Assembly (NCBI GenBank): GCA_035542215.1 | Contig: DATKLW010000195.1 | Span: forward strand, 4,520 to 68,519 | Length of the DNA: 64,000 nt | From: Thermoanaerobaculia bacterium | Lineage (GTDB): Bacteria; Acidobacteriota; Thermoanaerobaculia; UBA5066 | Reading direction: 5' to 3' | Shown here: positions 673 to 34,637 of the stretch, in pieces | How the letters are laid out: each line of letters opens with the position of its first letter | Numbering within the stretch: the stretch's first letter is position 1 | Notes under the pieces: model-generated | Database searches by the model: none | What the model was told of the DNA's origin: nothing | Seen by the model: the letters and a program-made list of their open reading frames with translations, nothing else | Program-made: the position numbers and the translations under genes

Positions 673-767
673 GACCCCGTCGCGAGTGGCGATGTCGAAA
701 CCCGCCAATTGCCGACAGTCGCCACAGCAGCTCGCGCTCAAGTCACTGCAGGTCAATGCCCTCACGC

Positions 768-782: not shown

Positions 783-797
783 CTTAGTGGGCAATCG

Positions 798-5501: not shown

Positions 5502-5724
5502 GGAGCTCCTTCCTTGATCCCCGCCGCTCAGCGGAGGGCGGAGCGCAAGGCATATGCCAGCAGCGCCGGCTGCCGCGCTCGAAGGAACCGCTCGCAAACC
5601 CCGCGTTTCACGGCGGGAGCGTGTAGCGCACCGCCGACGACGTGACGAATCCTCGCGTTCTTCGTCCGTCAACAGAAGCACGTGAACACAGCCACTCGAT
5701 GACTCCCGGCGACTTGTTCTGCGA

Positions 5725-5827
5725 TCTACGTCGCGGCAATCCGCTCCGCGGATCGCGTCAGCGAGCCCGGCGAACCGGGCTAAACGGCCCCGCTCCCGCG
5801 CTCAGACGGACATGACGCTCGGCCAGT
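5725..5827. repeat. direct repeat copy B (vestigial lipase 3' end plus the 3' end of the PLD gene)
   Basis: It aligns with 3949-4050. In the lipase frame it reads YVAAIRSADRVSEPGEPG-stop, against LYVAALRPKGRVSELGDPG-stop in the intact lipase gene. Confidence 0.6.
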
Positions 5828-8495: not shown

Positions 8496-9415
8496 ACGCA
8501 ACCCTCTCGTGCCGCAATCGTCGTCCGTCGCAACGTCCCGCCTTCGGGATCGAACACGTGCGCTTCGACCGTCGCAATTCTTCCATGGTCGTCGATTTCG
8601 TACAGGTTGAAGCCGGCCCGGATCGAGGAGTCCGGGTGGTCCAGCGCGGCGCCGCTCGCGGCGACGACGTCGAGGGCCCCCGCCGCCGTCTTGAGAACGC
8701 AGCGCACGCGCACGTGCAGGTGACCGAAGAGCACGAGCCCGCGCTCGAGCGGTTCGAGAACGCTCCGAAGCGATGCGGCGTCGACGAGCCCGTCCCGGAA
8801 CCGTGCCAGCCGGCTCCGCCCGTCGACGGGCGGATGATGAATCAGGACCACGGGCGTGCGACGCGCGACCTCGGGGTGGGCGAGCAGTCGAGTAAGAGCC
8901 GCGCGCTGGGCCTCGCCGACGACGCCCGCGGCGACGAACGGGGGCCGCGGCACCGCGCTCGAGAGCGCGATGATCGCGGCGGGCCCGCGCAGTTTCACGA
9001 CGGGATAGGACCCGGCGGGCAGGTCGACCGCGAACGCGGGGAGGTCGCTCCGAAGAAACGCGCCGAAGTGATGGAAAAAGCGTCGCTCTCGCGCGACGGA
9101 CGGCAGATAGATGTCGTGGTTGCCGGGGACGACCGTGACCTCCGCGGAACGCGCGACGCCGTCGAGGAGCCGCCGCGATTCCTCGTACTCGCTCTCGAGC
9201 GCGAGGTTCGTGATGTCACCGGTGACGACGACGTGGTCCGCGTGCGCCGCGGCGGACGCGAGCACCGCGAGCAGGTAATCGCGGCGATGCACGCGGCCGC
9301 GGCGCAGGACTAGGTTTGCGAGGCCCGTGATGCGCTTGTTGAAGAGAATCCTCCGCCACTCGACCCCGGTTCGCGAAAGGACGTGAAGGTCGGAGACGTG
9401 TGCGATGCGCAGCAA
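8492..9415 (-). CDS. calcineurin-like metallophosphoesterase
   Basis: Motifs seen: IAHVSDLHV, VVTGDITN, VVPGNHD, LIHHPP and FGHLHV. The track start at 9520 would overlap xfp by 77 nt. TTG 9415 with GGAG 9 nt upstream avoids the overlap, but the start remains uncertain. Confidence 0.75.
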   Translation of the reverse strand: MLRIAHVSDLHVLSRTGVEWRRILFNKRITGLANLVLRRGRVHRRDYLLAVLASAAAHADHVVVTGDITNLALESEYEESRRLLDGVARSAEVTVVPGNHDIYLPSVARERRFFHHFGAFLRSDLPAFAVDLPAGSYPVVKLRGPAAIIALSSAVPRPPFVAAGVVGEAQRAALTRLLAHPEVARRTPVVLIHHPPVDGRSRLARFRDGLVDAASLRSVLEPLERGLVLFGHLHVRVRCVLKTAAGALDVVAASGAALDHPDSSIRAGFNLYEIDDHGRIATVEAHVFDPEGGTLRRTTIAAREGCV

Positions 9416-15282: not shown

Positions 15283-15447
15283 CGGCCGGCCGCGGCGTCG
15301 CGACCCGGACTTACTGGGGATGATCCCGGTGCGTTCATGGCGCCCCTCGTATTGCCCGTGAACTCCTGCCTACCGAACGCATCCGGAGCATATCGCGGGG
15401 CGTCTCTCTATCGCGTGCCGTGAGAGAACCGATGCCTGCCGGCTTCT

Positions 15448-16047
15448 TCAAGATTTTGAGGGCGTTGTGGGCTTGGCTGCTGGAGTCGGACTGCCCGCTG
15501 CGCCCTTGGCAATCTGTGAGCCGATGACCAGCCGGGCGTTGGCTTCCCGCAGCCCCTTCTCGACATCCTGAACCCAACGGTCGTCGAGCACCACGATGAG
15601 CGCGGAGCTGCCCGGCACCAGTCCGGCCTTCATCTTGTCGACTGTCTCGCGGGGAATCCCCACCGAGTCTCCGGTGAGATACCCCAGTCCGCCGCCAGCC
15701 GTGGCGCCGGCAACCGAGCCGACCGGTCCGCCCACGACGCCGATCAGGGCGCCGATCACGGCTCCGACCGCGGCGTCCTTCTTTCGCTGGTCGTGGACCT
15801 TCGTCTTGCCCTTCAGGTCTTTCGACACGACGGCATAGGACTGGATTCGTTCGCCGGTGGCTTTCTGGTTCTCCTTCATCGTTTTGAACACCTGGTTCGC
15901 AGTCTCGACCCCGTCGTACGTCGCGTAAACCAGGCTCTGAGATGTCACGTCCTGCGCGGCGATCGGGTGGGACGCGATGAGGACGGCTCCGGTCAGGACG
16001 GCCGTGGAGATCCCGAAGAGCGGAAGGACTCGTTTGAAATTTCGCAT
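15448..16047 (-). CDS. secreted or membrane DUF1269-like protein (third family member in the window)
   Basis: An AGGAGAAG RBS precedes ATG 16047. It has the signal peptide MRNFKRVLPLFGISTAVLTGAVLIASHPIAAQD and a Gly-zipper AAVGAVIGALIGVVGGPVGSVAGATAGGGLG. The flanking alpha/beta halves are like those of 1112-1831. Confidence 0.65.
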   Translation of the reverse strand: MRNFKRVLPLFGISTAVLTGAVLIASHPIAAQDVTSQSLVYATYDGVETANQVFKTMKENQKATGERIQSYAVVSKDLKGKTKVHDQRKKDAAVGAVIGALIGVVGGPVGSVAGATAGGGLGYLTGDSVGIPRETVDKMKAGLVPGSSALIVVLDDRWVQDVEKGLREANARLVIGSQIAKGAAGSPTPAAKPTTPSKS

Positions 16048-16076
16048 ATCTTCTCCTATCTGTTCCGGGCTCCGGC

Positions 16077-16382
16077 TCACTTGGCCTTCACCGCGTTCTT
16101 CAACCTCGTGCTGAGATCCGGCAGACCTGCCTTGAGCTGCGCGATGTCGCTCTCGAGGTCAGCCCTGAGCTGCGCTGCCTTCGCGTCGCCGGCCTTCTGA
16201 AGCTCGTGGCGCTTGGTCTCGATCTGCTGGTGCTTCGCCTTGAGGATCTTGACGGCGTTCGCTTCGGCCTGAGCCTTCTTGGACTTGGCCTGCGCTTCGA
16301 AGCTTCCCAGCTGCGCTTTGGCCTCGTGAAGGACGGAACTGACCTTCTCCTCGAAAGTCTTGGTTGTGACGCTCTGGTTCAT
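16077..16382 (-). CDS. small Lys/Ala/Gln-rich coiled-coil protein (101 aa), hypothetical
   Basis: A GAGGAG RBS lies 6 nt before ATG 16382. The product is MNQSVTTKTFEEKVSSVLHEAKAQLGSFEAQAKSKKAQAEANAVKILKAKHQQIETKRHELQKAG... It lies 30 nt upstream of the DUF1269-like gene. Confidence 0.6.
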   Translation of the reverse strand: MNQSVTTKTFEEKVSSVLHEAKAQLGSFEAQAKSKKAQAEANAVKILKAKHQQIETKRHELQKAGDAKAAQLRADLESDIAQLKAGLPDLSTRLKNAVKAK

Positions 16383-16409
16383 GGCGTTCTCCTCTCGGCT
16401 GAGCCGGTC

Positions 16410-16424
16410 GCAAGGCGCGTGCCG
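16410..16424 (-). promoter_or_regulatory. sigma-54 promoter candidate for the coiled-coil/DUF1269 operon
   Basis: The minus-strand sequence is CGGCACGcgccTTGC. The predicted +1 is near 16398, giving a 16-nt leader that contains the GAGGAG RBS. Confidence 0.55.
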
Positions 16425-16606
16425 CGGTGGACAGCACGCTCGATCATTGACGCCTCCGCGAATTCCTTGAGTCGCGCGCGAATTCACTGCTCGTGAGGCC
16501 GGGGTGTGCCGCCTTCGTGACGAATCGTCGTTCGTTTCGTCCGTCAGCTGACGTGCGGAAGGGTCGGAAGTGCGGGAGTTCGTGTGGGTTCAATGGAATC
16601 GCGACA

Positions 16607-16621
16607 TGGCATCCGAACTGC
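16607..16621 (+). promoter_or_regulatory. sigma-54 promoter candidate for the DUF1269/DUF308 pair
   Basis: The sequence is TGGCATccgaaCTGC followed by AA, with correct GG/GC spacing. The predicted +1 is near 16633, 46 nt before ATG 16679. It is divergent from the 16410-16424 motif. Confidence 0.5.
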
Positions 16622-16678
16622 AATACCTGGTCGGCAGGCGCGGTCAGAGAGCGCGCAAAGCAACGAAAGGAGAAGGTC

Positions 16679-17383
16679 ATGAATCGCATGCTGGTCGTGG
16701 TGTTCAAGACGGAGAAAAAGGCGTTCGAAGGTCGTGAGGCCCTGAAGAGTCTCGATCGCGATGGCAGCATCAGCGCCTACGCGTATGCGGTCATCAAGAA
16801 GACCCCGGACGGGGTGAGTGTCGTCAAGGAGGGGGACGACCCTGGCCCGCTCGGAACTCTGGTGGGGACGTCGCTGGGGAGCCTCATTGGTTTGCTGGGC
16901 GGGCCGGTGGGGCTCGCGGTCGGCGCCAGTGTCGGGATGCTCGGGGGCATGGTCGCGGATCTGGACAACGCGCGGATCGGCGACGACTTCGTGGACGAGG
17001 TCTCGAGAAAGCTGACGCCGGGGACGTTCGCTCTCGTCGCGGAAATCGAGGAAGAGTGGACGACACCGGTGGACACGCGCATGGAGGCGATCGGCGGAGA
17101 GGTCTCGCGACGCGCCCTCTCGGACGTCCGGCACGCCGCGAATACCGAAGAGGTGGCGGCGATGAAGGCTGATCTCACTCAGATGAAGGCCGAACACGCC
17201 CAGGCGAAGGCGGACCGAAAGGCGAAGCTGCACGAAAAGATCAATCAGCTCGAAGCAAGAATCCAGCAGCACCAGGAGAAGGCGAAGGTGAGGCGCGAGG
17301 CCGCCGAAGCGCGGGCGCAGGCCAAAGTCGCGGTCCTGAAGGCGAAAACGGATGCCCTCCGGAAGGTCGCTTCCGGAAGCTAG
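16679..17383 (+). CDS. DUF1269-like glycine-zipper membrane protein with a C-terminal coiled coil
   Basis: An AAAGGAGAAGG RBS precedes the start. The product is MNRMLVVVFKTEKKAFEG...GPLGTLVGTSLGSLIGLLGGPVGLAVGASVG...EEWTTPVDTRMEAIGG. More than half the positions are identical by eye to 1112-1831. Confidence 0.75.
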   Translation: MNRMLVVVFKTEKKAFEGREALKSLDRDGSISAYAYAVIKKTPDGVSVVKEGDDPGPLGTLVGTSLGSLIGLLGGPVGLAVGASVGMLGGMVADLDNARIGDDFVDEVSRKLTPGTFALVAEIEEEWTTPVDTRMEAIGGEVSRRALSDVRHAANTEEVAAMKADLTQMKAEHAQAKADRKAKLHEKINQLEARIQQHQEKAKVRREAAEARAQAKVAVLKAKTDALRKVASGS

Positions 17384-17428
17384 AACGCAAGGCAATCAAC
17401 CGGTCAAACCACGACCAAAAGGAGACTT

Positions 17429-18007
17429 ATGTCACAAACGAAAACTCTCGCTGACGATGTCAAGAGCCGCTCCGGCTGGAGCATCTTCATGGGCGTCCTG
17501 ATCGTGGTCGTGGGGACCCTCCTCATCGTGTACCCGCTGCTCACGGCGGCGATCACGACGGTGTTCCTGGGGTGGGCGCTGATCTTCGTCGGCCTCGCGG
17601 AGATCGTGCTGGCGTTCAATTCGACGACCGCCGGCAGCTTCTTTCTCAAGATCCTCTTCGGAGCCCTTTACGGAATCGCGGGAATCGCTCTGGCGTTCTT
17701 TCCAATGGAAGGCGTGGCGACGCTGACGGCCTTCCTGGGAGTGTTGCTGGTCGTTCAGGCCGGGATGTCTACGGTGCTCGCGTTCCAGGTCCGGCCGGCA
17801 AACGGCTGGGGCTGGATTCTCTTCGACGGAATCACGAGCCTCATCATGGGCGGGCTCATTCTCATGAGCTGGCCCTCGAGCTCTGTGTGGGCGATCGGCA
17901 CGCTCGTCGGTGTCGCGGTCTTGTTCCGGGGCGTCGGGAGGATCGTGATCTCCGCGGGCATCCGCAAGGGGGCTGCAGACGCTGAGCGTTTTGCTCACGC
18001 TTCCTAA
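17429..18007 (+). CDS. HdeD/DUF308 family membrane protein
   Basis: An AAAGGAG RBS precedes the start. The product shows GWSIFMGVLIVVVGTLLIVYP...SWPSSSVWAIGTLVGVAVLFRGVGRI. It is a paralog of 1861-2436. Confidence 0.8.
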   Translation: MSQTKTLADDVKSRSGWSIFMGVLIVVVGTLLIVYPLLTAAITTVFLGWALIFVGLAEIVLAFNSTTAGSFFLKILFGALYGIAGIALAFFPMEGVATLTAFLGVLLVVQAGMSTVLAFQVRPANGWGWILFDGITSLIMGGLILMSWPSSSVWAIGTLVGVAVLFRGVGRIVISAGIRKGAADAERFAHAS

Positions 18008-18061
18008 CGGAGTTGGGTGCGTCGTGGATCGGCTCGGGCGGGGGTGGCCCGAGCCGGTCTT

Positions 18062-18598
18062 TCATTTTGGTTGCTTCCCCGGAACGAATCTCTCGTAGAG
18101 CGGCTCGCCGGTCGCGAGGTCCTCACCGAAGAACTCGACATACTCGACCTTGGGGAGGGAACCACCTTCCTTCGATTGCACGAACAGCTTACGCAGGACG
18201 CCGTCGTGACCGCCAATCGCCCCGGTTACCGCCGGGCACCCGTTAAGCATGCGAACGACAAGGCGCCTATCTCGCCCTGCCTTGAATGCCATCTCGAACG
18301 TCCCCGGAGTCTTGCCGGGGACGACATCGATGCCATAGGCGTGTTGCCGCTCCACCAGGTTCAGCTCCTCCCGCGCCCCGCTCTCGCCGTTCAGGAGCCA
18401 GTAGGCGACCACGGGATCGGAACCGGCGAGATCACCGGCCGCGTTGCGATTCGCGTCGTACACGACAATGTTGGCGTTCTTGCTCCGCCCGAGGACGAAC
18501 AGATGCGAAGGACAGGAGTCCCCGGGCGGATCGGCCGCCTCGCCTCGAGACACCGGCGCGACCGCGAGCAGGACCAGGGCGAGGCATCCTCGACGCAC
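18062..18598 (-). CDS. secreted hypothetical protein, possibly DUF4833-like
   Basis: It has the signal peptide MRRGCLALVLLAVAPVSRGEA, then LFVLGRSKNANIVVYDANRN...VVAYWLLNGESGAREELNLVERQHAYG. The family assignment is from memory only. Confidence 0.5.
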   Translation of the reverse strand: MRRGCLALVLLAVAPVSRGEAADPPGDSCPSHLFVLGRSKNANIVVYDANRNAAGDLAGSDPVVAYWLLNGESGAREELNLVERQHAYGIDVVPGKTPGTFEMAFKAGRDRRLVVRMLNGCPAVTGAIGGHDGVLRKLFVQSKEGGSLPKVEYVEFFGEDLATGEPLYERFVPGKQPK

Positions 18599-18604
18599 GT
18601 CCTC

Positions 18605-19162
18605 TCAGCCTTCCACCAGCGACTTCAGCCGAAAGGCCCCGACGAGAAGCGCGGACCCGCTGACGATCGCGAAACCAGCCATGAAGCCGAGGATAGCGGC
18701 GAGCGTGGTCGGAGGCGACACCAGGGCGGCGACCGACGCAGCGAGACAGACGACGCCCCACGTGAGGGTCCATCCCCAGGGGAGGTCGAGCCGTTTCTCC
18801 TGCAGGGCGACGGTAATGCCGATGATTCCGGAAAGCAGCAGCCAGAGACTGACCCAGGTCACCGCGAACGCCAGCGAAAGACTCGGGTAGTAGCAGAGAG
18901 CGGCGATCCCGAACCCGACGCTGACGAGGCCGGCGAGGAGAAGCAGCCACCACGAGCTGAAGACGGATCGAAGATCGATGGAGCGCATGATTTCCGTGAT
19001 TCCGCTGACGAGCGCCCAGATCGCGATGACGAGCGCGAACGCGGCGACGGACTCGAGCGGCTTGACCAGAATGAAGATGCCGAGTGCGATGGCGAGCAGC
19101 CCTCGAATGACCAGCGCCCACCACGACCGACGGAACGCCTGACGGAGACTCTCGGCGACCAT
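18605..19162 (-). CDS. HdeD/DUF308 family membrane protein
   Basis: An AAAGGAGG RBS lies 5 nt before ATG 19162. The product shows WWALVIRGLLAIALGIFILVKP and six TM segments. The track ORF start at 19246 lacks an RBS. Confidence 0.8.
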   Translation of the reverse strand: MVAESLRQAFRRSWWALVIRGLLAIALGIFILVKPLESVAAFALVIAIWALVSGITEIMRSIDLRSVFSSWWLLLLAGLVSVGFGIAALCYYPSLSLAFAVTWVSLWLLLSGIIGITVALQEKRLDLPWGWTLTWGVVCLAASVAALVSPPTTLAAILGFMAGFAIVSGSALLVGAFRLKSLVEG

Positions 19163-19238
19163 GTGTCCTCCTTTCGATCCGTGCGCCGTCCATCGCCGCG
19201 ACGGATCAGTCGAAACGTCGCAAGTCTCGGCCTCGCGG

Positions 19239-20315
19239 TCACGCACGCGCAGCGGCTGCGGTGAAGGTCTCCGGGGAAGAAGTCGGAAGCCCCAGCCTGG
19301 AAATGCGATACACCAGCGTCGTGCGCTTCATCCCGAGGCGCGCGGCCGCGCCCTGGGGGCCCGCGATGACCCAGTTCGACTCCCTGAGAGCCCGGAGGAT
19401 GTGATCGCGCTCGATCTCCTCGAGTGTGCCCGCTGCGGACCGAGAGTCTTGCACGACCGCGTGCTTCAGCTGGGCGAGCGGAGGCCGGAGCACCGGCCCG
19501 GGCGACAGGATGACCGCACGCTCCAGGAAGTTCTGCAGCTCGCGGACGTTTCCCGGCCAGTCGTAGCACTGCAACGCCTCCATGGCCTCTTCCGGAATCG
19601 TCTCGATGTGGCGATTGAGCCGTGCGGCAAATCGGGCCACGTAGTGCCGGACGAGCATCGGGATGTCCTCCCGTCGCTCGCGCAGGGGAGGAAGATGGAG
19701 CGGAAACACGTGCAGCCGGTAGAACAGGTCGCCCCGGAACTGCTTGTCCGAGACCCTTTGGAGCAGGTCCTGGTTCGTGGCCGCGACGATGCGCACGTCG
19801 ACGCGCTGCGTGCGGCTCGTGCCGAGTCGCTCGAATTCCTGCTCCTGAAGCACGCGGAGCAGCTTCGGCTGCAGGTCGATCGGGATGTCCCCGATCTCGT
19901 CGAGGAACAGCGTTCCCTTGTCCGCGATTTCGAATCGGCCGGCCTTGCGCATGAAGGCTCCGGTGAAAGCACCCTTCTCGTGCCCGAAGAGCTCGCTCTC
20001 GAGCAGGCCGGACGGGATCGCCGCGCAATTCAGCTTGACGAAGGGCCGGTCGCGGCGCGAGCTGAGGGCGTGAATGGCGCGGGCGATGAGCTCCTTTCCC
20101 GTGCCCGTCTCTCCCTGGATCAGCACCGTGGAGTCCGTCGGAGCCACGATCTTGACCTGGCCGAGAATCTCCTCGAGGGCCGCACTCTCGCCGACGATCT
20201 CCGGAAGAGCCGCGTCCTGCCGAGACTCCTGGCTTGCCCTTCGCACATTTTCAGGCTCATCGAAGTGAGAATCCGAGGGGTGCTTGTCGGGGAGAGAGAG
20301 GGAATTTGAACTCAT
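19239..20315 (-). CDS. sigma-54 dependent activator without an N-terminal sensory domain (PspF-like architecture, ~358 aa)
   Basis: About 40 aa of low-complexity N-terminus lead directly into the AAA+ core ([14 protein letters not shown]..., [21 protein letters not shown]). A C-terminal HTH follows ([21 protein letters not shown]). The start is moved to ATG 20315 because the track ORF start at 20522 overlaps the STAS gene. Confidence 0.9.
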
Positions 20316-20346
20316 GGCGATTTCGCAGAGGTTCGCGTACGGGCGC

Positions 20347-20616
20347 TCAGCCCCTGCGCCTTTCGTGCTCTTGAGCAATCCACTCGCGGACGTAGCCCGG
20401 GCAATTCTCGAGCGCGATGCCGTTGTCTGCGCAGCGTCCGAGAAACTCGACGGCGCCGCGGTCGACGAGCGTGACGTTCTTGAGGTCCAGAACGAGGTGA
20501 CGACCGGTTCCCTCCAGATCAACGAGTCTCTTCAGCTCTGCCACGTCCTCGGCCTTTACTTCGCCGCTGAGGGTGAGGACAACGCCCCCGTTCGAGGCTC
20601 GTTCGATTCTCATCAC
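20347..20616 (-). CDS. STAS domain protein, paralog of 798-1073
   Basis: The product (M)MRIERASNGGVVLTLSGEVKAEDVAELKRLVD...LVLDLKNVTLVDRGAVEFLGRCADNGIALENCPGYVREWI has STAS topology. The first codon is GTG at 20616 and ATG follows at 20613. Confidence 0.7.
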   Translation of the reverse strand: MMRIERASNGGVVLTLSGEVKAEDVAELKRLVDLEGTGRHLVLDLKNVTLVDRGAVEFLGRCADNGIALENCPGYVREWIAQEHERRRG

Positions 20617-20629
20617 GCCGTCACTGACT

Positions 20630-20644
20630 GCAACGCACAGGCCA
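20630..20644 (-). promoter_or_regulatory. sigma-54 promoter candidate upstream of the STAS-bEBP operon
   Basis: The minus-strand sequence is TGGCCTgtgcgTTGC followed by A. GG/GC spacing is correct, with a weaker -24 half. It sits 13-16 nt upstream of the start codon, the same geometry as 768-782. Confidence 0.4.
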
Positions 20645-20747
20645 CGCGTATGTCGTTGAAAACACGTGGACGCCTTCTCGTCACGACGTTACGAAGTTCG
20701 TAAATCTGCGAGTTTCGCGAGAGTGCGGGCCGCGAATGAGACTGAGT

Positions 20748-23696
20748 CTAGGGTGCTTTGAACTGGTGCTTGTCGATCCCCAGGGCCTTGATTTTCGACT
20801 CCAGGGTGGTCGACGGAATGCCGAGCCTCGCGGCCGCACCCGCCGGCCCGGAAACCCGGCCGCGAGTCTCAGCCAACGCCGCTTCGATGATTTCCTTCTC
20901 CTCGTGCGCCGGCGCCCTCAACAACCTCTGACTTCCCGCCTGCGTCTCGCCAGCCACTCTCCGCGAGAGCCAGCTCTCGTCCACCGAAAACACCTCCGTG
21001 TCGCAGACGATGACCGACCGTTCGACGACGTTCTGAAGCTCGCGGATGTTTCCCGGCCAGGGATACGTCTGCAGCCGATCCAGGCTCTCCTTGTCGATGC
21101 TCGTGATGCTCTTTCCTGTCTTCCTCGCAAAGCGGTGGATGAAGTACTCCACGAGGAGCGGGATGTCCTCCCGCCTCTGGCGCAGCGGCGGCGTCTCGAT
21201 CGGAAACACGTTGAGCCGGTAAAAGAGGTCGCTTCGAAAGGCGCCCCTGTCGATCGCAGCCTGCAGGTCGCGATTCGTGGCCGCGACCACCCTCACATCG
21301 ACCGGAATCGGGTGCGCGCCCCCGACGCGCTGGAGCTCCCTCTCCTGCAGGACGCGCAGGAGGGCGACCTGGGTCTCCGCGGGCAGGTCCCCGACCTCGT
21401 CCAGGAAGATCGTGCCTCCCTCCGCGAGCTCGAAGCGCCCCAGATGCCGTTGCAACGCTCCGGTGAAGGCCCCCTTCTCGTGGCCAAACAGCTCCGAGGC
21501 GATGAGGGCGGGCGGAATCGCGGCGCAGTTCACGCTGACGAAGGCCCGGCCGGACCGAGGCGAGCGCTTGTGAATTGCGCGGGCGATCAGCTCCTTGCCG
21601 GTACCAGTTTCCCCGGTGACGAGAACGGTTGAGTCCGTGGGCGCGACCTTGGAGACACGGGAGAGGACCTCGCGGAGGGCGGAAGAGGTCCCCACGATCT
21701 CCTCGAACATCGAGGTCTTGTCGATTTCCTGGCGCAGCGAAACGTTCTCTCTCGCGAGCCGGTCCTCCGCCTGCTTGCGATCCTCGATATCGGTCGCCGA
21801 AACGTACCAGCGCTGGATGCTCCCCGCCTCATCTCTCCACGGGCCGAAGCGGATCAGGAACCACCGGTGATTGCCGTCCTTTCTGCGGAGACGCGCCTCG
21901 AACTCGTGCGCGGAACCGCTCAGGAACTTGCTTTGAGATTCGGCCACGCGCTCTCGGTCGTCCGGGTGATAGAACTCGCCTTTGCCGCGACTCTGAAACT
22001 CCTCCAGGGTGACACCGAGATAGTCGAGCCCGGACTGGTTGACATAGAGTGGATTTCTGTCCGCGGCCCGTAAGACGGCCACGAACTGCGGGACGAGGTT
22101 CAGGACCTGCCGGATCTCCGCCTCACTCCCGCGCAGGGCGGCTTCCACCCGCTTCCGATCCTCGATGTCCGTCCGCGTTCCGTACCACCGGATGATTCGC
22201 CCCTCGTCGTCCCGCAGCGGGTTGATGCGGATCAGGAACCAGCGATACTGCCCGTCCTTCCCAAGGAGTCGCGCCTCCGTCTCCCAGGGAATCCCTTGGG
22301 CGACCGCCTCCTCGCGCTCGTGCCGGAACCTCTCCAGGTCGTCCGGATGGAAGGCGCGGAAGAGATAGTCCGGAGTCCGGACGTCTTCCCGGGTGAGACC
22401 CGCGTAGTCGAGACCCCGCTGATTCAGGTAGAGGATTTCCCCGTGCGGCTCCAGGACGACGACGTGGTGCGGGATGGCATCGACGAGGCGCCGAAGCTCC
22501 AACTCGTCCTGCCGGAGCTTCTCGTTCGCCCTCTTTGCTTCCGTGACATCCATCACGGCGCCGACGAACTCGAGGCCGCCCGTCTCGTCTCTCGAGGCAT
22601 GCCCGACGACGTGGAGATGCTTGACGGAACCGCCGGGCATCAGCAGGCGATGCTCGAAGTCGAAGTTCTGGCCGGTTTCCGAGGCTCTCGCGATGACCTC
22701 CTGAACCCGGACAGCGTCCTCCGGATGAGTCCGCCAGAGGACGGTCTCCACGGACACCTCGTTCGTCCGGTCGATTTCGAAGATCCGGAAGGTCTCGTCG
22801 GACCAGAAGATGTCTCCGCGCGCGACGTTCCAGCCGAAGCTCCCGGTGTGACTGACGCGTTGTGCCTCCGCAAGGTAGGCCTCGCTCCGCCGCAAGACCT
22901 CCTCGGCGTGTACACGGTCCGTCACGTCGATGTTCGTCCCGAGGACTTCGACGACCTCCCCGTCGGCATTCAAGACCGGGTGGCCGATGGCGTCGAAGTG
23001 CCGAACGGTTCCGTCGGGAAGCGCCACTCTGTACGAGGCGGCGTAGTCCGCTTTCTCGCGGACTGTTCTGTCACTGAGCTCTTTGACTCTGTCGCGATCG
23101 TCCGGGTGTATCCGCTGCCATATTTGTTCTCGCGTGAGCATTCCCTGCTGCGGCTCCGCGCCGACCAAACGGATCAACTCCGCGGAGCAGTAGAGGAGCT
23201 CCCGGGTGGCGCCGTCGACAGCCCAGCTGCCCGTATGAGTCAGCCTCTGCGCTTCGGCCAGATAGGCCTCACTCCGCCGCAGCGCTTCCTGTGCCGCGAC
23301 AGCTTCGGCGAGCCGCTGGTTGGCGTTCAGGGCCTCCCGGCGTGCGCGATCCGCGAGACGGCTGGTCGTGATCCCGATGACAAGGAATGCGACCAGCGCG
23401 GCAGCGTCCCGCGGGTCGTCGAAAGTGAAGGTGCCCGGCGAAACGATCAGGGTGAACCCGATCGCGGCAAAGAACGAAAGGACCAGGGCGTAACGAAAAC
23501 CCCATGCGGCCGAGCCGATCAGGACGACGAACAGGAATGTGAGAGCCGCCGCAAACGTCCGGTCCGCCGGGTGTACGGCAAGGAGCGCGGCCGTGATCGC
23601 GGCGACAACCGCGACACAAATCGCAAGCCGGAAGACCGTTCTACCGATTCCGCTCGATCGGCCGTCGACCCCCTGAAGCGTGCCCTGCGGGTTCAC
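20748..23696 (-). CDS. membrane-anchored multi-PAS sigma-54 dependent activator (DUF4118-like TM module, several PAS domains, AAA+ and HTH)
   Basis: The N-terminal TM block resembles the KdpD-type DUF4118. The signature RRSEAYLAEAQR..HTGS(W/F) recurs and PAS-like units follow. Then come [21 protein letters not shown] and the HTH AAARLGIPSTTLESKIKALGI. Confidence 0.9.
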   Translation of the reverse strand: MNPQGTLQGVDGRSSGIGRTVFRLAICVAVVAAITAALLAVHPADRTFAAALTFLFVVLIGSAAWGFRYALVLSFFAAIGFTLIVSPGTFTFDDPRDAAALVAFLVIGITTSRLADRARREALNANQRLAEAVAAQEALRRSEAYLAEAQRLTHTGSWAVDGATRELLYCSAELIRLVGAEPQQGMLTREQIWQRIHPDDRDRVKELSDRTVREKADYAASYRVALPDGTVRHFDAIGHPVLNADGEVVEVLGTNIDVTDRVHAEEVLRRSEAYLAEAQRVSHTGSFGWNVARGDIFWSDETFRIFEIDRTNEVSVETVLWRTHPEDAVRVQEVIARASETGQNFDFEHRLLMPGGSVKHLHVVGHASRDETGGLEFVGAVMDVTEAKRANEKLRQDELELRRLVDAIPHHVVVLEPHGEILYLNQRGLDYAGLTREDVRTPDYLFRAFHPDDLERFRHEREEAVAQGIPWETEARLLGKDGQYRWFLIRINPLRDDEGRIIRWYGTRTDIEDRKRVEAALRGSEAEIRQVLNLVPQFVAVLRAADRNPLYVNQSGLDYLGVTLEEFQSRGKGEFYHPDDRERVAESQSKFLSGSAHEFEARLRRKDGNHRWFLIRFGPWRDEAGSIQRWYVSATDIEDRKQAEDRLARENVSLRQEIDKTSMFEEIVGTSSALREVLSRVSKVAPTDSTVLVTGETGTGKELIARAIHKRSPRSGRAFVSVNCAAIPPALIASELFGHEKGAFTGALQRHLGRFELAEGGTIFLDEVGDLPAETQVALLRVLQERELQRVGGAHPIPVDVRVVAATNRDLQAAIDRGAFRSDLFYRLNVFPIETPPLRQRREDIPLLVEYFIHRFARKTGKSITSIDKESLDRLQTYPWPGNIRELQNVVERSVIVCDTEVFSVDESWLSRRVAGETQAGSQRLLRAPAHEEKEIIEAALAETRGRVSGPAGAAARLGIPSTTLESKIKALGIDKHQFKAP

Positions 23697-23774: not shown

Positions 23775-24173
23775 TCAAGGTTTCGCGACAAGGACCCACC
23801 CGGCCTCGACTTTCGTTTCGTAGGTGCGGATGGATTCCGTGCGGACCTGCTGCATCTGCAGGGCGACGTTCCGCAGCATCGTGGCTATCCGGGGCGGAGG
23901 GGTCTCGTTGCCCAGGTCCGCCGGGACCGGACCGGAGAGGGCCCCGCCGGTCATGACGTCGAACTGGGCGCAGTGCATGCCGCAGGTGACGATCTTGCCG
24001 TCGAGCGTTCCCATCTCCAGCGGCGCATTCATGTGTCCGCACCGCCGCTGGATGGCGAAGTAAGTTCCGCCGCAATTGCAGATGACGACCTCGCGTCCAT
24101 TCAGCTCGACGGTCTTCATTCCGCCGGGCGCGATCTCGTCCGTGCGGATGGCGCGGAGGAACTCCTCACCCAA
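23775..24173 (-). CDS. Rieske [2Fe-2S] domain protein (small ferredoxin-type)
   Basis: It carries the CxH-X16-CxxH motif RRCGHMNAPLEMGTLDGKIVTCGMHCAQFD. The TTG start overlaps the stop of the upstream gene by 8 nt. Confidence 0.8.
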   Translation of the reverse strand: MGEEFLRAIRTDEIAPGGMKTVELNGREVVICNCGGTYFAIQRRCGHMNAPLEMGTLDGKIVTCGMHCAQFDVMTGGALSGPVPADLGNETPPPRIATMLRNVALQMQQVRTESIRTYETKVEAGWVLVAKP

Positions 24174-24501
24174 GGCCCACGTCCTTCGGCGGCAGCTGGG
24201 GAAGGCGGTTCGGGTCGGTGACGTCCTTGTGCACGAAGAGGCCGCACCAGCAGCGTTTCAGCGCGTCGAAATGTTCCCGGTGGAAGGGAATGCATGGACA
24301 GACGATCTGCATGTCGCGCGCGCGGTCGCGGCGTATCGGCTGGCAGGGACAGAAGGGAATGCCGTGCTTGGCCTCCAGCGTCACTTCCTGTTCGAGCAGA
24401 AACTCCTTCAACTCCTCGTCGGGCGTGAACTTGAAACCCATTGGCCCGACGATCTTCTCGAAGAAGTACTGAAGCGCCTTTTTCCTCGGTTCCGTTTCCA
24501 T
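24166..24501 (-). CDS. ferredoxin:thioredoxin reductase catalytic-subunit-like protein (FTR-like, variant Cys motif)
   Basis: The product is METEPRKKALQYFFEKIV...GIPFCPCQPIRRDRARDMQIVCPCIPFHREHFDALKRCWCGLF, giving CPC-X14-CPC-X13-CWC. This resembles the FTR catalytic CPC...CPC...CHC cluster or disulfide motif. The true start is the internal ATG of track ORF 24166-24780. Confidence 0.75.
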   Translation of the reverse strand: METEPRKKALQYFFEKIVGPMGFKFTPDEELKEFLLEQEVTLEAKHGIPFCPCQPIRRDRARDMQIVCPCIPFHREHFDALKRCWCGLFVHKDVTDPNRLPQLPPKDVGLG

Positions 24502-24512
24502 TCGACACCACC

Positions 24513-24758
24513 CTACGACGTCAGCGCGCGCGAATAGACCTCCGGCTGGTATCCCGAAATCACGGCGTCGCCGATCCTGGCGAATGGGAAGCCCGTGGCG
24601 CCGGCGGCATCGAGCTCCCGCGAGATCCTCTCCTGGGTCGCCTCGTCGGCGAGGTCGTAGTCGATGTACGTGAAAGGGATGTCGCGATCGGCGAAGAACT
24701 CCTTCGCTCTGCGGCACCACGGACAAGTCGAGAGCGTATAGAGCGTGACGGTTTTCAT
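24513..24758 (-). CDS. glutaredoxin/NrdH-like small thioredoxin-fold protein (CPWC active site)
   Basis: The product MKTVTLYTLSTCPWCRRAKEFFADRDIPFTYIDYD...GFPFARIGDAVISGY is 81 aa and has the typical Grx fold pattern. Confidence 0.8.
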   Translation of the reverse strand: MKTVTLYTLSTCPWCRRAKEFFADRDIPFTYIDYDLADEATQERISRELDAAGATGFPFARIGDAVISGYQPEVYSRALTS

Positions 24759-25096
24759 GCGTTTTCCTCACGTCCGACATTCACGAACAGTTTTCCGGCT
24801 TCGAGCTTCGTGCGATAAACCGTAAGGCCAAGTTCCGGCGCGTCGAGGAACCTGCCCGTTCGCACATCGAATCGCCAGTCATGGCATCCGCAGACGACCG
24901 TGAAGCCCTCCAGCCGTCCCCCGGACAGCGGACACGCCATGTGCGCGCACTTGCCCGCAACGGCGTAGACCGCGCCGCCGACGCGAGCGAGAAGGACATT
25001 CACCCCGAGCGGATAGGCCGCAGCCATGCGACCGTCTCTCAGCGCATTGTCGTCCAACGCGTAGGTCCATTCGGCGGCTCTGGTTGACTCATCCAC
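24755..25096 (-). CDS. Rieske [2Fe-2S] domain protein
   Basis: It carries the motif GKCAHMACPLSGGRLEGFTVVCGCHDWRFD. The track start at 25114 is a TTG lying inside the TTGC of the sigma-54 -12 element, so I prefer the in-frame GTG at 25096. The start is uncertain. Confidence 0.75.
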   Translation of the reverse strand: MDESTRAAEWTYALDDNALRDGRMAAAYPLGVNVLLARVGGAVYAVAGKCAHMACPLSGGRLEGFTVVCGCHDWRFDVRTGRFLDAPELGLTVYRTKLEAGKLFVNVGREENA

Positions 25097-25110
25097 GACC
25101 TCAAGTTTCC

Positions 25111-25125
25111 GCAAGGCTCGTGCCA
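25111..25125 (-). promoter_or_regulatory. sigma-54 promoter candidate for the Rieske/Grx/FTR-like/Rieske operon
   Basis: The minus-strand sequence is TGGCACGagccTTGC, a full match to TGGCACG-N4-TTGC. It lies in the divergent gap before the ABC transporter genes. Confidence 0.6.
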
Positions 25126-26004: not shown

Positions 26005-26808
26005 ATGGCGGCCAGAACGATCGACATCTCGTGGATGCATCTCGCGCTCGCGGGAGCGCTCGTCCTGGTTGCGGTCGCCATTTCGGCCTGGCAGCGCCTC
26101 GGCCTCGCGCGGGGCTTCGTCGTGGGCGCAATTCGCGCCGTCATTCAACTGGTCGCCGTCGGTTACGTCCTCGTTTACGTGTTCGCGGCCGAGCGTTGGT
26201 GGCTGGTCCTCGTCGTCCTCGCCGTCATGCTCGTCGCTGCGACGGCGACGGCGACGAATCGCCTGTCCGGCGTCCCCGTGGCCGGGCGCCGGAAGCTTCG
26301 GACGATTTCCGGGACGGCGATGCTCGTGGGGGCAGGGCTCACGCTCGCGTACGTCACCGTCGTCGTGCTGAACGTTCGGCCGTGGTACGAGCCGCGATAT
26401 CTGATCCCGCTCTTCGGGATGATCGTCGGAAGCGCGATGAACGGCGCTGCCTTGGCCGCCGAGCGGCTGGCAAGTGAAATGGAGTCCCGGCGCGGCGAGG
26501 TCGAGGCATACCTCGCCTTGGGCGCAGCGCCCGCCCGGGCGGCAGCCGAGCCGGTCCGGCGAGCCCTGGTGGCTTCGCTCATCCCCGCCGTCAACAGCCT
26601 GATGGTCGTCGGCCTTGTCCAGCTTCCGGGAATGATGACGGGACAGATTCTGGCCGGCCAGTCGCCGCTTCTCGCCGTGCGCTACCAGATCGTGGTGGCG
26701 TTCATGCTCGCCGGATCGACGGCGATGACGTCGGTCATCGTCGTCCTCTGGTATCGGCGGACGTTCTTCACGGCGGCGGAGCAGCTCGCGGTGAGCGTTC
26801 CGCTCTAG
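26005..26808 (+). CDS. UPF0014 / FetB (YbbM)-like ABC exporter permease
   Basis: The 267-aa polytopic protein shows ...GLARGFVVGAIRAVIQLVAVGYVLVYVF... and ...MVVGLVQLPGMMTGQILAG..., typical of the YbbM/FetB family. Confidence 0.75.
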   Translation: MAARTIDISWMHLALAGALVLVAVAISAWQRLGLARGFVVGAIRAVIQLVAVGYVLVYVFAAERWWLVLVVLAVMLVAATATATNRLSGVPVAGRRKLRTISGTAMLVGAGLTLAYVTVVVLNVRPWYEPRYLIPLFGMIVGSAMNGAALAAERLASEMESRRGEVEAYLALGAAPARAAAEPVRRALVASLIPAVNSLMVVGLVQLPGMMTGQILAGQSPLLAVRYQIVVAFMLAGSTAMTSVIVVLWYRRTFFTAAEQLAVSVPL

Positions 26809-27218
26809 GGGCCAGACCGGTCACCGGAGCCGTTCGGGCCCGAGGCTTCCAATTCGGCGGCCAATAGCCACTCCTCAGCCTCGAGGCGGCCGCGAAACGG
26901 CCGGACGGCGCAGACGTCCTCGACGAGGATCTCGAGCATCCGCATGGCCCCGTACGAAACGTCATCACCGACGACGACAGCGGTCGGGCCGAGAGCGCCG
27001 TGACGTGCGAGGTCGCGCAGAAGGTCGACCACGCGGCGGACCTCTGCGCCGCTGAGAGCCACGGTGGCTCGAGTGGCGTCGATGAGCTCGGGGAACGGCA
27101 GGCCGCCGTCATCCCGCTCCTTCCGCAGATGGGTGGCGATCTCGGAAAAACCCGCCTCCCCCTCGGCCACCGCGAACAACCATCGGCGCTCACGGTCGAC
27201 CGAATAGGCGATTGGCAT
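26805..27218 (-). CDS. STAS/SEC14-like (SpoIIAA-like) small protein, paralog of 280-672
   Basis: A GGAGG RBS lies 4 nt before the ATG. The product is MPIAYSVDRERRWLFAVAEGEAGFSEIATHL...TAVVVGDDVSYGAMRML...VRPFRGRLEAEEWL. Confidence 0.6.
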   Translation of the reverse strand: MPIAYSVDRERRWLFAVAEGEAGFSEIATHLRKERDDGGLPFPELIDATRATVALSGAEVRRVVDLLRDLARHGALGPTAVVVGDDVSYGAMRMLEILVEDVCAVRPFRGRLEAEEWLLAAELEASGPNGSGDRSGP

Positions 27219-27236
27219 TCCCCCTCCTGCTCGGCG

Positions 27237-28310
27237 CTACGACTTCTTGGTTCCCGTCGACATGTCCTTCGCCCAGGCGGCCTTGGCCGCATCGCTAGCG
27301 GCCTTGGCGGCATCCCTAGCTGCCGTCGCCGCCCTCTCGATGGAACCTCGTGCTTCCGCTCCCGCCTTCCGTGCGGCTTCCTGGTCCGCCTCGAGCGAGC
27401 GCTTGGCGGCTTCCGCGGTCTTCGAGGTCGCGTCTCTGGCCGCCGCGGCCGCCTCCTTCGCGGCGGTCTCGGCCTTTTGCGCAAGCTCCTTGCTCGTCGA
27501 GACCGCTTTCTGGTTCGCTTCGATGACCTTCTTCTCGGCGGCCTCGGAGGCGGCCTGGGCGGTCAGCGCCGCCTGATGAACGTCCGCGGCGACCTTCGCC
27601 GATGCCTCACTGACGGTCTTTCCGGCGAGCTTCGCAGCCGCGACGGCTTTGGCCTCGGCCTCGTGGGCGGCGTCCTCGGCGGCTCGCGAGGCCGCCTTCG
27701 CGGCGTCCTGGGCCCGGTGCATCGCCGTCTTCGTGGACCTTTCCGCGGCGAGGGCGGCCGCCTTCGTGGCGTCCGCCGCTTCCTGTGCCGCGCGCTTTGC
27801 CTCCACCGCCATCTCGTGGGCGGCCTCCTTGTTGGACTCGGAGGCGGCCCGGACGGAGTCTTCCGCCTTTTGGAGCGCGGCGGCCGTCGCGTCCGCGGCG
27901 CTCTTCGCCGACTGCGCGGCATGCGAGGCGAACTCCTTGTCGGCCGCGAGCGCTCTCTGGTATGCGAGCTCGGCTTTTTCGGCTGCGCGTTTGGCTGCGG
28001 CGTTCGCCCGGTCCACGGCGGCCCTGATCTCCTCCGCCGTCTTCTGCGAGTCCTCTTTCGCGGTGGCCTCGAGCGCCTGATTCGCCGCCTCGGCGGCCGC
28101 ATGGGCAGCCGCCCTCGCGTCAGACGCGGCCTTCCGTGCAGCCTCCCGGCTCTCTGCGGCCGGAACGGCCGGCGCGGGGGGCGCCTGATCGGCAAGAGGC
28201 GCCGCGGAAAGCGCCCCGGCGCCCCAGGCGACGGCGGAAGCGGCAATGAGAGTTCGGAAAGCCGATGTGACGAATCTCGTGGTTCGTTGACAGCAGCGGC
28301 GAGAGTTCAT
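27237..28310 (-). CDS. secreted Ala/Glu/Lys-rich amphipathic-helix repeat protein (LEA / apolipoprotein-like), hypothetical
   Basis: A signal-like N-terminus (...RTTRFVTSAFRTLIAASAVAWGAGALSAAP) is followed by ~300 aa of AxxAAxEAxKAA-type low-complexity helix. AAGGAG lies 8 nt before ATG 28310. An alternative ATG is at 28316. Confidence 0.65.
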   Translation of the reverse strand: MNSRRCCQRTTRFVTSAFRTLIAASAVAWGAGALSAAPLADQAPPAPAVPAAESREAARKAASDARAAAHAAAEAANQALEATAKEDSQKTAEEIRAAVDRANAAAKRAAEKAELAYQRALAADKEFASHAAQSAKSAADATAAALQKAEDSVRAASESNKEAAHEMAVEAKRAAQEAADATKAAALAAERSTKTAMHRAQDAAKAASRAAEDAAHEAEAKAVAAAKLAGKTVSEASAKVAADVHQAALTAQAASEAAEKKVIEANQKAVSTSKELAQKAETAAKEAAAAARDATSKTAEAAKRSLEADQEAARKAGAEARGSIERAATAARDAAKAASDAAKAAWAKDMSTGTKKS

Positions 28311-28372
28311 GGTCATTTCTCCTTGAAGTACCGGCGTGGTCGCCAGCGGCGGACAAGCGCGCCCTCCTCATC

Positions 28373-28387
28373 GCAACTGGCGTGCCA
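28373..28387 (-). promoter_or_regulatory. sigma-54 promoter candidate for the LEA-like / STAS-SEC14-like operon
   Basis: The minus-strand sequence is TGGCACGccagTTGC, a full consensus match. The predicted +1 is near 28361, ~50 nt upstream of the start and downstream of the ftsH stop. Confidence 0.65.
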
Positions 28388-33975: not shown

Positions 33976-33990
33976 TGGCACGACGCGTGC
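33976..33990 (+). promoter_or_regulatory. sigma-54 promoter candidate upstream of the fourth DUF308 gene
   Basis: The sequence is TGGCACGacgcGTGC. The -24 half is perfect and the -12 half is GTGC rather than TTGC, with correct spacing. The predicted +1 is near 34002, 81 nt before ATG 34083. Confidence 0.4.
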
Positions 33991-34082: not shown

Positions 34083-34637
34083 ATGACCGAGATTGACGCT
34101 CTATCGATCGGCCTCCCCCCTGCAATGAGTCACAACTGGGGATGGTTCCTCGCTTTCGGACTCATCCTCCTGGCGCTCGGCGTTGCTGCCATCCTTCGGT
34201 CCTTCGGGTCCACCATCGTCTCGATGGCATTTTTCGGCTGGCTGCTGCTGTTCGCGGGCTTCATCGAGTTCGTCGACGCCTTCATGGTCGGGAAATGGGC
34301 GGGGTTCTTCCTCCACCTGCTGATCGCCATCATGCTCGTCGTCGCTGGCGCCGTGATGGTGGCGAAACCTCTGGCAAGCGCCGAGGCGGCGACTCTCTTC
34401 ATGTCGATGTTCCTTCTGATCGGCGGCGTGTATCAGGTGATCTACGCCCTGTGGACGCATTTGTCCGGCTGGGGTTGGCACGCCCTGAACGGGGGGATCT
34501 CCACCATCCTGGGCATCCTCCTGCTCGCGCAGTGGCCGGTCTCGGGCCTCTGGGCGATCGGCTTGTTTGTCGGCATCGACTTGGTTTTCTACGGCTGGGC
34601 CTGCGTCGCTCTCGCTTTCGAGCTGCACAAGCCGTGA
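34083..34637 (+). CDS. HdeD/DUF308 family membrane protein
   Basis: An AAGGAGAA RBS precedes the start. The product shows NWGWFLAFGLILLALGVAAIL...LLLAQWPVSGLWAIGLFVGIDLVFYG. It is the fourth paralog. Confidence 0.8.
   Translation: MTEIDALSIGLPPAMSHNWGWFLAFGLILLALGVAAILRSFGSTIVSMAFFGWLLLFAGFIEFVDAFMVGKWAGFFLHLLIAIMLVVAGAVMVAKPLASAEAATLFMSMFLLIGGVYQVIYALWTHLSGWGWHALNGGISTILGILLLAQWPVSGLWAIGLFVGIDLVFYGWACVALAFELHKP

Follow-up and report, generated by a model that had tools for sequence, protein, structure and literature searches.

A conserved STAS cassette and a possible two-tier sigma-54 cascade for membrane stress proteins in a Thermoanaerobaculia bacterium

How does a bacterial enhancer-binding protein (bEBP) that has no sensor domain come under control? 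The question is raised by a 64,000-nucleotide stretch of a Thermoanaerobaculia genome (positions 4,520 to 68,519 of contig DATKLW010000195.1, assembly GCA_035542215.1; hereafter the window, numbered from its first letter), in which a short bEBP of this kind is encoded directly after a small STAS gene and close to two divergent sigma-54 promoters that precede DUF1269 genes. An earlier note on this region had described a candidate Psp-analogous stress system with the short bEBP at its top, perhaps regulated in trans by the STAS protein, by coiled-coil proteins or by both. Our analysis leads to another arrangement, in which membrane stress proteins are controlled by a conserved two-tier sigma-54 cascade, of which the window holds one copy, a reading to which we give about even chances. 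Its upper tier would be a 982-amino-acid (aa) PAS-containing sensor bEBP, encoded immediately upstream of the STAS gene and missing from the earlier finding.

The cassette in the window and in other genomes

The STAS operon is encoded on the minus strand. A sigma-54 -24/-12 promoter, TGGCCTGTGCGTTGC (20630-20644), ends 13 nucleotides (nt) before the start codon of STAS_A (20347-20616; 89 aa, a minimal STAS fold), which is followed by the short bEBP (19239-20315; 358 aa), a DUF308 (HdeD-like) membrane protein (18605-19162) and, as the last gene, a secreted DUF4833 protein (18062-18598). The sensor bEBP (20748-23696, minus strand) combines DUF4118, four PAS domains, a sigma-54 AAA+ domain with its lid and an HTH_8 helix-turn-helix (HTH) domain. 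Of the two divergent promoters, CGGCACGCGCCTTGC (16410-16424, minus strand) ends 27 nt before the ATG of a 101-aa coiled-coil protein (16077-16382), with a GAGGAG ribosome-binding site between, and this gene is followed by one for a secreted DUF1269/glycine-zipper protein of 199 aa (15448-16047, ATG at 16047). The other, TGGCATCCGAACTGC (16607-16621, plus strand), ends 57 nt before the start of a 234-aa DUF1269 protein with a coiled coil (DUF1269cc; 16679-17383), and the second gene of this operon encodes another DUF308 (HdeD-like) membrane protein (17429-18007). A hairpin with a 14-bp stem (18026-18060), probably a bidirectional terminator, lies between the two convergent operons. A paralogous operon, likewise missing from the earlier finding, begins with the sigma-54 motif TGGCATCGCGGTTGC (768-782, plus strand) and comprises STAS_B (798-1073), DUF1269cc_B (1112-1831) and DUF308_C (1861-2436).

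Domain assignments come from a Pfam scan of window open reading frames (ORFs) in 1-35 kb, which together with the ORF listing agreed with every gene named earlier. The DUF1269 proteins score 36.9 and 47.0 bits, the latter for DUF1269cc (cut-off 26.9), the DUF308 proteins 72.2 and 69.1 bits (cut-off 25) and the DUF4833 protein 94.8 bits (cut-off 23.1). The coiled-coil protein covers 91 of the 93 positions of the NCBIfam profile sll1863_fam (NF052504) at 34.1 bits (cut-off 35), and its homologs adjoin DUF1269cc in five related loci (L009, L077, L091, L158 and L172). Papers found on sll1863 concern responses to salt and other abiotic stress in Synechocystis.

The sigma-54 promoters stand out from chance. 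The pattern YGGCAY-N5-YTGC occurs six times in the window against 1.1 expected, a count that 0 of 100 shuffles reached, and GG at -24, GC at -12 and a 10-nt separation are found at 16410-16424(-), 16607-16621(+), 20630-20644(-) and 768-782(+). No sigma-70-like promoter was found in 15300-20900. The three sigma-54 motifs reported earlier are thus present as described, with conserved equivalents in other genomes. Both window STAS genes (20613-20644(-) and 768-800(+)) begin 13-15 nt past the -12 element, so their transcripts should have almost no leader; in other genomes promoter and STAS start are usually 34-66 nt apart, and a GAGAGG-type ribosome-binding site is present.

A survey seeded with the STAS protein, scanning one genome per species, revealed 366 STAS loci, mostly from Acidobacteriota (Terriglobia, Bryobacterales) with some labelled Nitrospirota or Verrucomicrobiota; 80 were fetched and searched with profile hidden Markov models over six-frame ORFs. 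One carrier, Edaphobacter modestus DSM 18101 (L063), is in culture. Among 82 non-redundant STAS loci, where a STAS gene had at least 1.5 kb on both sides, a bEBP was found within 1.5 kb in 59 of 62 cases. The bEBP lies just upstream of STAS on the same strand, within that distance, in 58/74 loci, with PAS detectable in 45, and a short bEBP follows STAS directly in 39/69 (median gap, 53 nt). About 66 of 89 loci carry a sigma-54 motif 13-75 nt before the STAS start, whereas by our own estimate chance would place so loose a motif in roughly 4% of stretches like these. The usual order is PAS-bEBP, 16-bp palindromic upstream activating sequence (UAS), sigma-54 promoter, STAS and short bEBP, with DUF1269cc/DUF308 afterwards in a subset; the full series STAS, short bEBP, DUF1269cc, DUF308 occurs in L020 and L077.

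The linkage of sensor-less bEBP, STAS, DUF1269 and DUF308 recurs in many genomes and metagenomes, as the earlier note had required of a real system, and the module is widespread in soil Acidobacteria. What did not hold was the tie between STAS and the DUF1269/DUF308 effectors in particular: STAS is followed by DUF308 or DUF1269 in only 8/69 loci, and heads sigma-54 operons of diverse cargo, including HisKA_3 kinases (ordinary histidine kinases in a few loci), HlyD and OEP efflux parts, a ClpB-like ATPase, YjgF, one ferritin-like protein, an enoyl-CoA hydratase and an alpha/beta hydrolase. The invariant neighbour is the bEBP.

An independent survey, seeded with DUF1269cc and covering 80 metagenome loci, approached the same module from its output side. 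Among loci with at least 2.5 kb upstream (n = 42), DUF1269cc was preceded by STAS and a bEBP in 13, by a bEBP only in 10 and by neither in 19. A DUF308 gene lies downstream in 36/54 loci and a sigma-54 motif 36-84 nt before the DUF1269cc start in 45/75, and DUF1269cc has no promoter of its own in the loci where it starts 48 nt after the end of STAS. An exact-protein look-up added L091, with STAS divergent from DUF1269cc, a coiled-coil gene and DUF308. DUF1269cc is strongly conserved, with more than 4,000 homologs and identities of 65-77% across about 94% of the protein. A glycine-zipper segment splits its alpha/beta domain, and an 87-residue helix forms the C-terminus. Its AlphaFold2 model is of medium quality (predicted local distance difference test score (pLDDT) 69), and a Foldseek search of it against the PDB gave nothing below E = 0.1, with vague ferredoxin/ACT-like similarity only. 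Two STAS pseudogene remnants (L087:5671-5922 and L090:5659-5922, with C-terminal ...CAAHVREWILAEK) stand directly upstream of DUF1269cc with no nearby bEBP, and on one metagenome contig a cluster of prokaryotic ubiquitin-like, E2 and ThiF (E1-like) genes (L091:8100-11046) immediately follows the DUF1269cc, coiled-coil and DUF308 operon.

Enhancers, their activators and a possible cascade

A link between activator and target comes from the enhancers. Across related loci a 16-bp palindrome stands 67-69 nt upstream of the -24 element and takes one of two forms, TTCGCCAATTGGCGAA (UAS-1) or TTCGCGAATTCGCGAA (UAS-2). The core of this palindrome covaries with one HTH position of the bEBP encoded upstream. 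An HTH reading P-R-STLES accompanies UAS-1 in 19 of 20 non-redundant pairs, plus 7 outside the regular expression, the remaining UAS-1 pair having Gly, and an HTH reading P-[A/P]-STLES accompanies UAS-2 in 12 of 12; these pairs come from related sequences and are not an independent-sample statistic. Among them, no R-type HTH occurs with UAS-2 and no A/P-type with UAS-1. So clean a partition implies that the STAS operon is a direct target of the bEBP encoded just upstream, and a one-residue rule can be predicted from the aligned sequences, in which Arg versus Ala/Pro in the HTH would select the CCAATTGG versus the CGAATTCG core. Both window bEBPs have an HTH_8 domain by Pfam, that of the sensor bEBP reading LGIPSTTLESKIKALGIDKHQFK (type A); enhancer binding by either is predicted, with the family-wide HTH-UAS covariation in support. 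With this covariation, and with a PAS-rich sensor bEBP immediately upstream in most loci, the short bEBP can hardly be the top of the system as the earlier note had it.

Other loci illustrate how two tiers might be separated. In L020, L077 and L036 the big bEBP has an R-type HTH and the short bEBP one of P..Y type, and in L020 and L077 UAS-1 stands at the STAS promoter, with UAS-2 at the DUF1269cc and coiled-coil promoters, a split that, taken with the HTH types, is the mark of two regulatory tiers. Where a short bEBP lies directly upstream of DUF1269cc, its HTH is of the UAS-2 type, and UAS-2 is found at a constant offset before DUF1269cc in 45/75 loci. L009 and L023 have no short bEBP; there a single big bEBP with a P-type HTH goes with UAS-2-like sites before both promoters. 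Overall, comparative evidence, all of it drawn from sequence, backs the module, its sigma-54 promoters with their UASs and the tier-1 bEBP as the activator that acts on the STAS promoter.

In the cascade that we propose, the membrane-anchored PAS sensor bEBP would bind a palindromic enhancer about 68 nt upstream of promoter 20630-20644 and activate the STAS, short bEBP, DUF308 and DUF4833 operon. The short bEBP would then bind enhancers of its own and activate the divergent promoters at 16410 and 16607, yielding the sll1863-like coiled-coil protein with the secreted DUF1269 protein on one side and DUF1269cc with DUF308 on the other, and it would probably also activate a PLD gene (5545). Because it has no sensor domain, the short bEBP would be controlled mainly by its abundance; given the upstream PAS sensor bEBP and the HTH-UAS covariation, signal input would most likely come through the transcriptional cascade, and control of the short bEBP in trans is not required. 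The STAS protein, always the first product of the tier-1 promoter, would bind a partner through the canonical STAS face without phosphorylation and modulate bEBP ATPase activity. Its target might be the activator that drives it, in a PspA-like feedback, or the short bEBP made alongside it, which it would then gate; the two are compatible. We infer the targets of the short bEBP in the window and any STAS-bEBP contact. The output, membrane and periplasmic stress proteins and a phospholipid-modifying enzyme, looks like an envelope or membrane stress response.

The window's own cis-elements partly follow the family pattern, each of the four promoters having a palindromic or half-palindromic element at the canonical distance of 67-68 nt; the earlier proposal that the effector genes are under sigma-54 promoters thus gains conserved promoters and candidate enhancer sites. 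Before the STAS promoter lies the candidate UAS CTCGCAGATTTACGAA (20697-20712, minus strand), a diverged palindrome 68 nt upstream of -24 with 11/16 matches to UAS-2, its offset taken from the 67-69 nt seen elsewhere. The plus-strand DUF1269cc promoter has a palindrome, GTCCGTCAGCTGACGT, with a perfect core, CGTCAGCTGACG (16539-16554), at a 68-nt offset. Facing the minus-strand promoter are two GCGAATTC motifs 20 nt apart (16458-16485), each half of the UAS-2 palindrome, of which 16478-16485 lies at about the canonical offset, and a half-palindromic element containing GAATTCGCG (16477-16492) lies at that offset too. In the paralogous operon a UAS-1-like element, CCCGCCAATTGCCGAC (701-716, plus strand), precedes the motif 768-782 by 67 nt.

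A further element may connect the divergent promoters to phospholipid metabolism. A 29-nt element, ACGGACGAA-N9-GATTCGTCACG (16516-16544, minus strand), contains the inverted repeat GACGAA-N11-TTCGTC and has a second copy at 5641-5669(-), with all 20 specified bases identical, upstream of the promoter of a PLD-type gene (region 4056-5669, minus strand; two PLDc_2 domains, start GTG at 5501, sigma-54 motif 5545-5559). The copies share their orientation and lie 92 nt (16516-16544) and 82 nt (5641-5669) from -24, one helical turn apart. The PLD-type gene probably shares a regulon with the divergent DUF1269 promoters, which suggests phospholipid remodelling as part of the response. A search through 1.3 Mb of related loci found no GACGAA-N11-TTCGTC, so the repeat appears lineage-specific. 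The PLD-type gene has a second PLD-like gene (5802-8501) and a class-3 lipase gene (3009-4007) as neighbours.

The STAS protein, the short bEBP and competing explanations

The STAS protein is an unusual member of its fold. STAS_A scores 28.6 bits against Pfam STAS_2, just under the cut-off of 29.2, but its AlphaFold2 model is confident (pLDDT 92.3; element order E-E-H-E-H-E-H), and its best Foldseek matches are RsbV, MlaB and SpoIIAA (E about 1e-4, template-modelling (TM) score 0.66-0.74), with SLC26 STAS domains also ranking among the best. Since the fold is confident and the nearest structures all bind ATPases or kinases, STAS_A is probably a partner-binder. Profile alignment to TM1442 places Arg opposite the phospho-Ser of 'MDSAG' in the family (Leu in the paralog STAS_B), and this column is Arg or Gln in nearly all of 32 aligned members; the earlier description of a non-phosphorylatable STAS protein was thus accurate, as was that of its LVDLDAV paralog, located at 798-1073(+). 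The most conserved positions are LVLDL, D-R, the Cys ending helix 2 and NCPGYVREWI (RC...NCPGYVREWI), in loops that are the partner-contact loops of SpoIIAA, RsbV and MlaB in established structures. STAS_B has neither conserved Cys (NLPPYVRAW), and the STAS beside DUF1269cc in L091 lacks the second (NSPPYIRVW).

The family is large, with the 366 genomic loci and, from a profile search of 1.84 billion representatives, 1,391 matches at E < 1e-10 (clusters at 50% identity). Mirror-tree analysis gave correlations of r = 0.72 and 0.73 between STAS distances and those of the big and short bEBPs (partial, 0.62 and 0.64), compared with 0.47 between the two bEBPs. None of the papers in the library searched links STAS to enhancer-binding proteins, and DUF1269 appears in them only in passing; the connection of this family to sigma-54 activators appears to be undescribed so far. 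On gene context, fold, spacing and the mirror-tree, the STAS protein is probably a phosphorylation-independent modulator of bEBPs. A bolder proposition is that these 87-93-aa, Cys-bearing proteins form a new, large class of dedicated trans-acting bEBP regulators that need no phosphorylation to bind the AAA+ ring or a short docking tail, with every paralog matched to its own cassette in a modular unit of sensor bEBP, STAS and output regulator; we hold it tentatively, and think it somewhat likelier to be wrong than right. The conserved Cys pair might add a redox input.

The short bEBP has an intact activator core with little in front. Sigma54_activat starts at residue 40, leaving 39 residues before the AAA+ core (about 40 had been stated), and GTGKE (residue 71), GAFTGA (115) and DEIG (139) are present, with Walker A, Walker B and HTH_8 intact; for PF00158 it scores 241.8 bits and the sensor bEBP 239.5. 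A longer N-terminus was considered and rejected, as there is no in-frame ATG, GTG or TTG between the STAS stop and the ATG at 20315, and an extended start would overlap the conserved STAS frame. In related loci the tails have a median length of 43 aa, are alike within subfamilies and start with an M-S-L-N-S-L-S/T-like motif. Two sensor-less HisKA_3 kinases directly after STAS (L013:10293-11099 and L050:10288-10911) have N-termini resembling the short-bEBP tail and first AAA+ residues (MDFNSLLSS...NFAGIVG; MSSNAVATL...DFEGIK); they look like chimeras retaining the bEBP tail, which would fit the tail as a functional handle. An (E/P/K)SWLS motif between AAA+ lid and HTH is common to all type-A bEBPs, big and short (loci L007-L172), and is missing from type-B short bEBPs; it is a possible docking site.

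Several explanations compete with the cascade. In a single-tier, Psp-like system the short bEBP would be the hub, made constitutively or independently of the PAS-bEBP, held inactive by STAS and/or the coiled-coil proteins and freed by membrane stress. This would accord with the PspF-like architecture of the short bEBP, with its tight linkage to STAS (the median gap of 53 nt) and with N-tails that are conserved within subfamilies, reappear on the L013 and L050 kinases and would fit a STAS docking peptide. However, a sigma-54 promoter of its own stands before the STAS/short-bEBP operon, along with a UAS that matches the sensor bEBP, so expression of this operon would itself depend on a bEBP, and 27/69 STAS modules have no short bEBP. 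The hallmark Psp proteins are also missing: PspA_IM30 has no match at E <= 0.01 in any protein of 15448-23696, and no PspB or PspC domain is among the Pfam matches of the window ORFs in 1-35 kb, so the system is not Psp. Nor is the short bEBP a PspF ortholog, as it reaches 296.9 bits against the TIGR02974 PspF equivalog (cut-off 443.55) and scores higher with FhlA and NifA models, grouping with cores of that type. What survives of the label 'Psp-analogous' is an analogy of logic, with a bEBP that has no regulatory domain, a small protein with potential feedback on the activator as first gene of a sigma-54 operon, and membrane-associated stress proteins, some with long coiled coils, as output; homology does not, the coiled-coil proteins being sll1863-like, the candidate modulator having a STAS fold and a PAS sensor bEBP on top making a cascade. 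We consider the single-tier reading improbable.

We see a similarly small chance that STAS is a promoter-proximal accessory of the cargo, a MlaB- or SulP-type partner of a membrane protein or other ATPase, or a binder of a small ligand, with no role in bEBP regulation and with its adjacency to bEBPs reflecting its first place in their target operons. MlaB and SLC26 among the best structural matches, the STAS gene or remnant that adjoins DUF1269cc even where no bEBP is near (L087 and L090) and the loci where STAS ends 48 nt before DUF1269cc would all suit such a role, but the cargo is so diverse, and a bEBP with UAS and promoter so clearly the sole constant neighbour, that a cargo-specific partner is hard to reconcile with them. 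Canonical partner switching, in which STAS would antagonise an unlinked RsbW/SpoIIAB-type kinase controlling a sigma-70-family factor and the sigma-54 module would only induce STAS, is suggested by source annotations of members as 'anti-anti-sigma regulatory factor' and by the fold matches to RsbV and SpoIIAA. Against it, members across the family have Arg or Gln in place of the phospho-Ser, neither a GHKL (RsbW/SpoIIAB-type) anti-sigma kinase nor a PP2C domain was found in the scanned ORFs of 1-35 kb, as had been claimed for the neighbourhood, and the many paralogs, each tied to its own bEBP module, misfit a single anti-sigma partner. With phospho-site, kinase and phosphatase all missing, we deem this explanation very unlikely. 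Compared with SpoIIAA, RsbV and MlaB, with which they share the fold (Foldseek TM about 0.7), the STAS proteins here are shorter (87-93 aa), have no phosphorylatable Ser/Thr and no linked kinase or phosphatase, carry a CPGYVREW motif and a conserved Cys pair, and are linked to sigma-54 activators instead of anti-sigma kinases or ABC transporters.

The cascade has difficulties of its own, and the following points count against it. In the window, the HTH of the short bEBP is of a different type (type B), the candidate UAS before the STAS_A promoter is a poor palindrome, and that promoter is unusually near the start codon, with a predicted nearly leaderless mRNA since the motif ends 13 nt 5' of it. 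The window's enhancers differ from the family consensus, which makes the assignment of sites to bEBPs here a guess, although with a type B HTH on the short bEBP enhancers unlike UAS-2 are what the cascade model predicts. Beyond the window, STAS also heads operons of unrelated cargo, and 19 of 42 DUF1269cc genes have no bEBP or STAS nearby. The mirror-tree favours neither bEBP and does not separate co-inheritance from interaction, a Rosetta-stone search revealed no STAS-bEBP fusion in the best 150 of the 1,391 matches (all stand-alone, 71-200 aa), and the stress signal is one that we only infer.

Neighbouring genes and comparison with known systems

Further sigma-54-like motifs in the left half of the window accompany genes of other kinds. 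The motif TGGCACGAGCCTTGC (25111-25125(-)) precedes an operon within 23775-25125 that ends just upstream of the PAS-bEBP gene and encodes a Rieske protein, a small CPWC glutaredoxin-like protein, a ferredoxin-thioredoxin-reductase beta-like protein and a second Rieske protein, a redox theme that might relate to the STAS Cys pair. Another, TGGCACGCCAGTTGC (28373-28387(-)), heads genes in 26805-28387 for a secreted, Ala-rich, repetitive helical protein of 359 aa, with no Pfam match, and a 137-aa protein whose paralog (343-672(+)) lies just upstream of the STAS_B promoter. The sigma-54-like motif TGGCACGACGCGTGC (33976-33990) lies upstream of yet another DUF308 gene, the third that stands alone (34083-34637(+)).

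Third-position GC is 0.77-0.88 in the left half (1-35000), which holds the sigma-54 stress genes, and 0.93-0.97 in the right half (35000-64000), which holds housekeeping-type genes (PALP enzyme, HtrA-like protease, 6PGD, RND efflux and TonB receptor). The left half may be an island gained by horizontal transfer. The closest homolog of DUF1269cc, at 98% identity, carries the label Fimbriimonadaceae, whereas the STAS relatives are mostly from Acidobacteriota.

Cascades of sigma-54 activators are known from Myxococcus, where in the Nla/Act cascades one activator drives expression of another. Unlike those, the cascade proposed here would come as a compact cassette that has been duplicated repeatedly, includes a small STAS gene dedicated to it and keeps a fixed UAS-promoter geometry. 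A closer parallel for the short bEBP is HrpR/HrpS with HrpV and HrpG in Pseudomonas syringae, where sensor-less bEBPs are set by expression level and by a small trans-acting binding protein (PMC3105312). There, too, two bEBP genes lie side by side, but HrpV and HrpG are not STAS proteins, and HrpR and HrpS act together at one promoter as an obligate hetero-hexamer, whereas here the HTH types and predicted enhancers of the two bEBPs differ. Modulators that act in trans on a bEBP also include NifL on NifA (PMC12998190), FleN on FleQ (PMC8528422), RtcAB on RtcR (PMC9650030) and BtdS on RedR2 (PMC10084136). In each case, how active the bEBP is depends on a separate protein that binds to it and is often encoded in or near the operon under its control, as we propose for STAS, and for RedR2 a short N-terminal tail is likewise involved; none of NifL, FleN, RtcAB and BtdS has a STAS fold, and their interactions were demonstrated experimentally, compared with gene context as the basis here.

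Acidobacteria are among the most abundant soil bacteria and have many sigma-54 activators whose wiring is almost uncharted. A recurrent cassette with fixed promoter and enhancer geometry is now defined for them, and through it three widespread protein families that had no known function gain a regulatory context: DUF1269 proteins with a coiled coil, DUF308/HdeD-like proteins and sll1863-like proteins. If the STAS proteins bind bEBPs, they would form a new class beside the trans-acting modulators PspA, NifL, HrpV and FleN, and AAA+ transcription activators would join anti-sigma kinases and transporters as partners of STAS proteins. The unit of sensor bEBP, STAS and output regulator would then be comparable in role to two-component systems in Acidobacteria.

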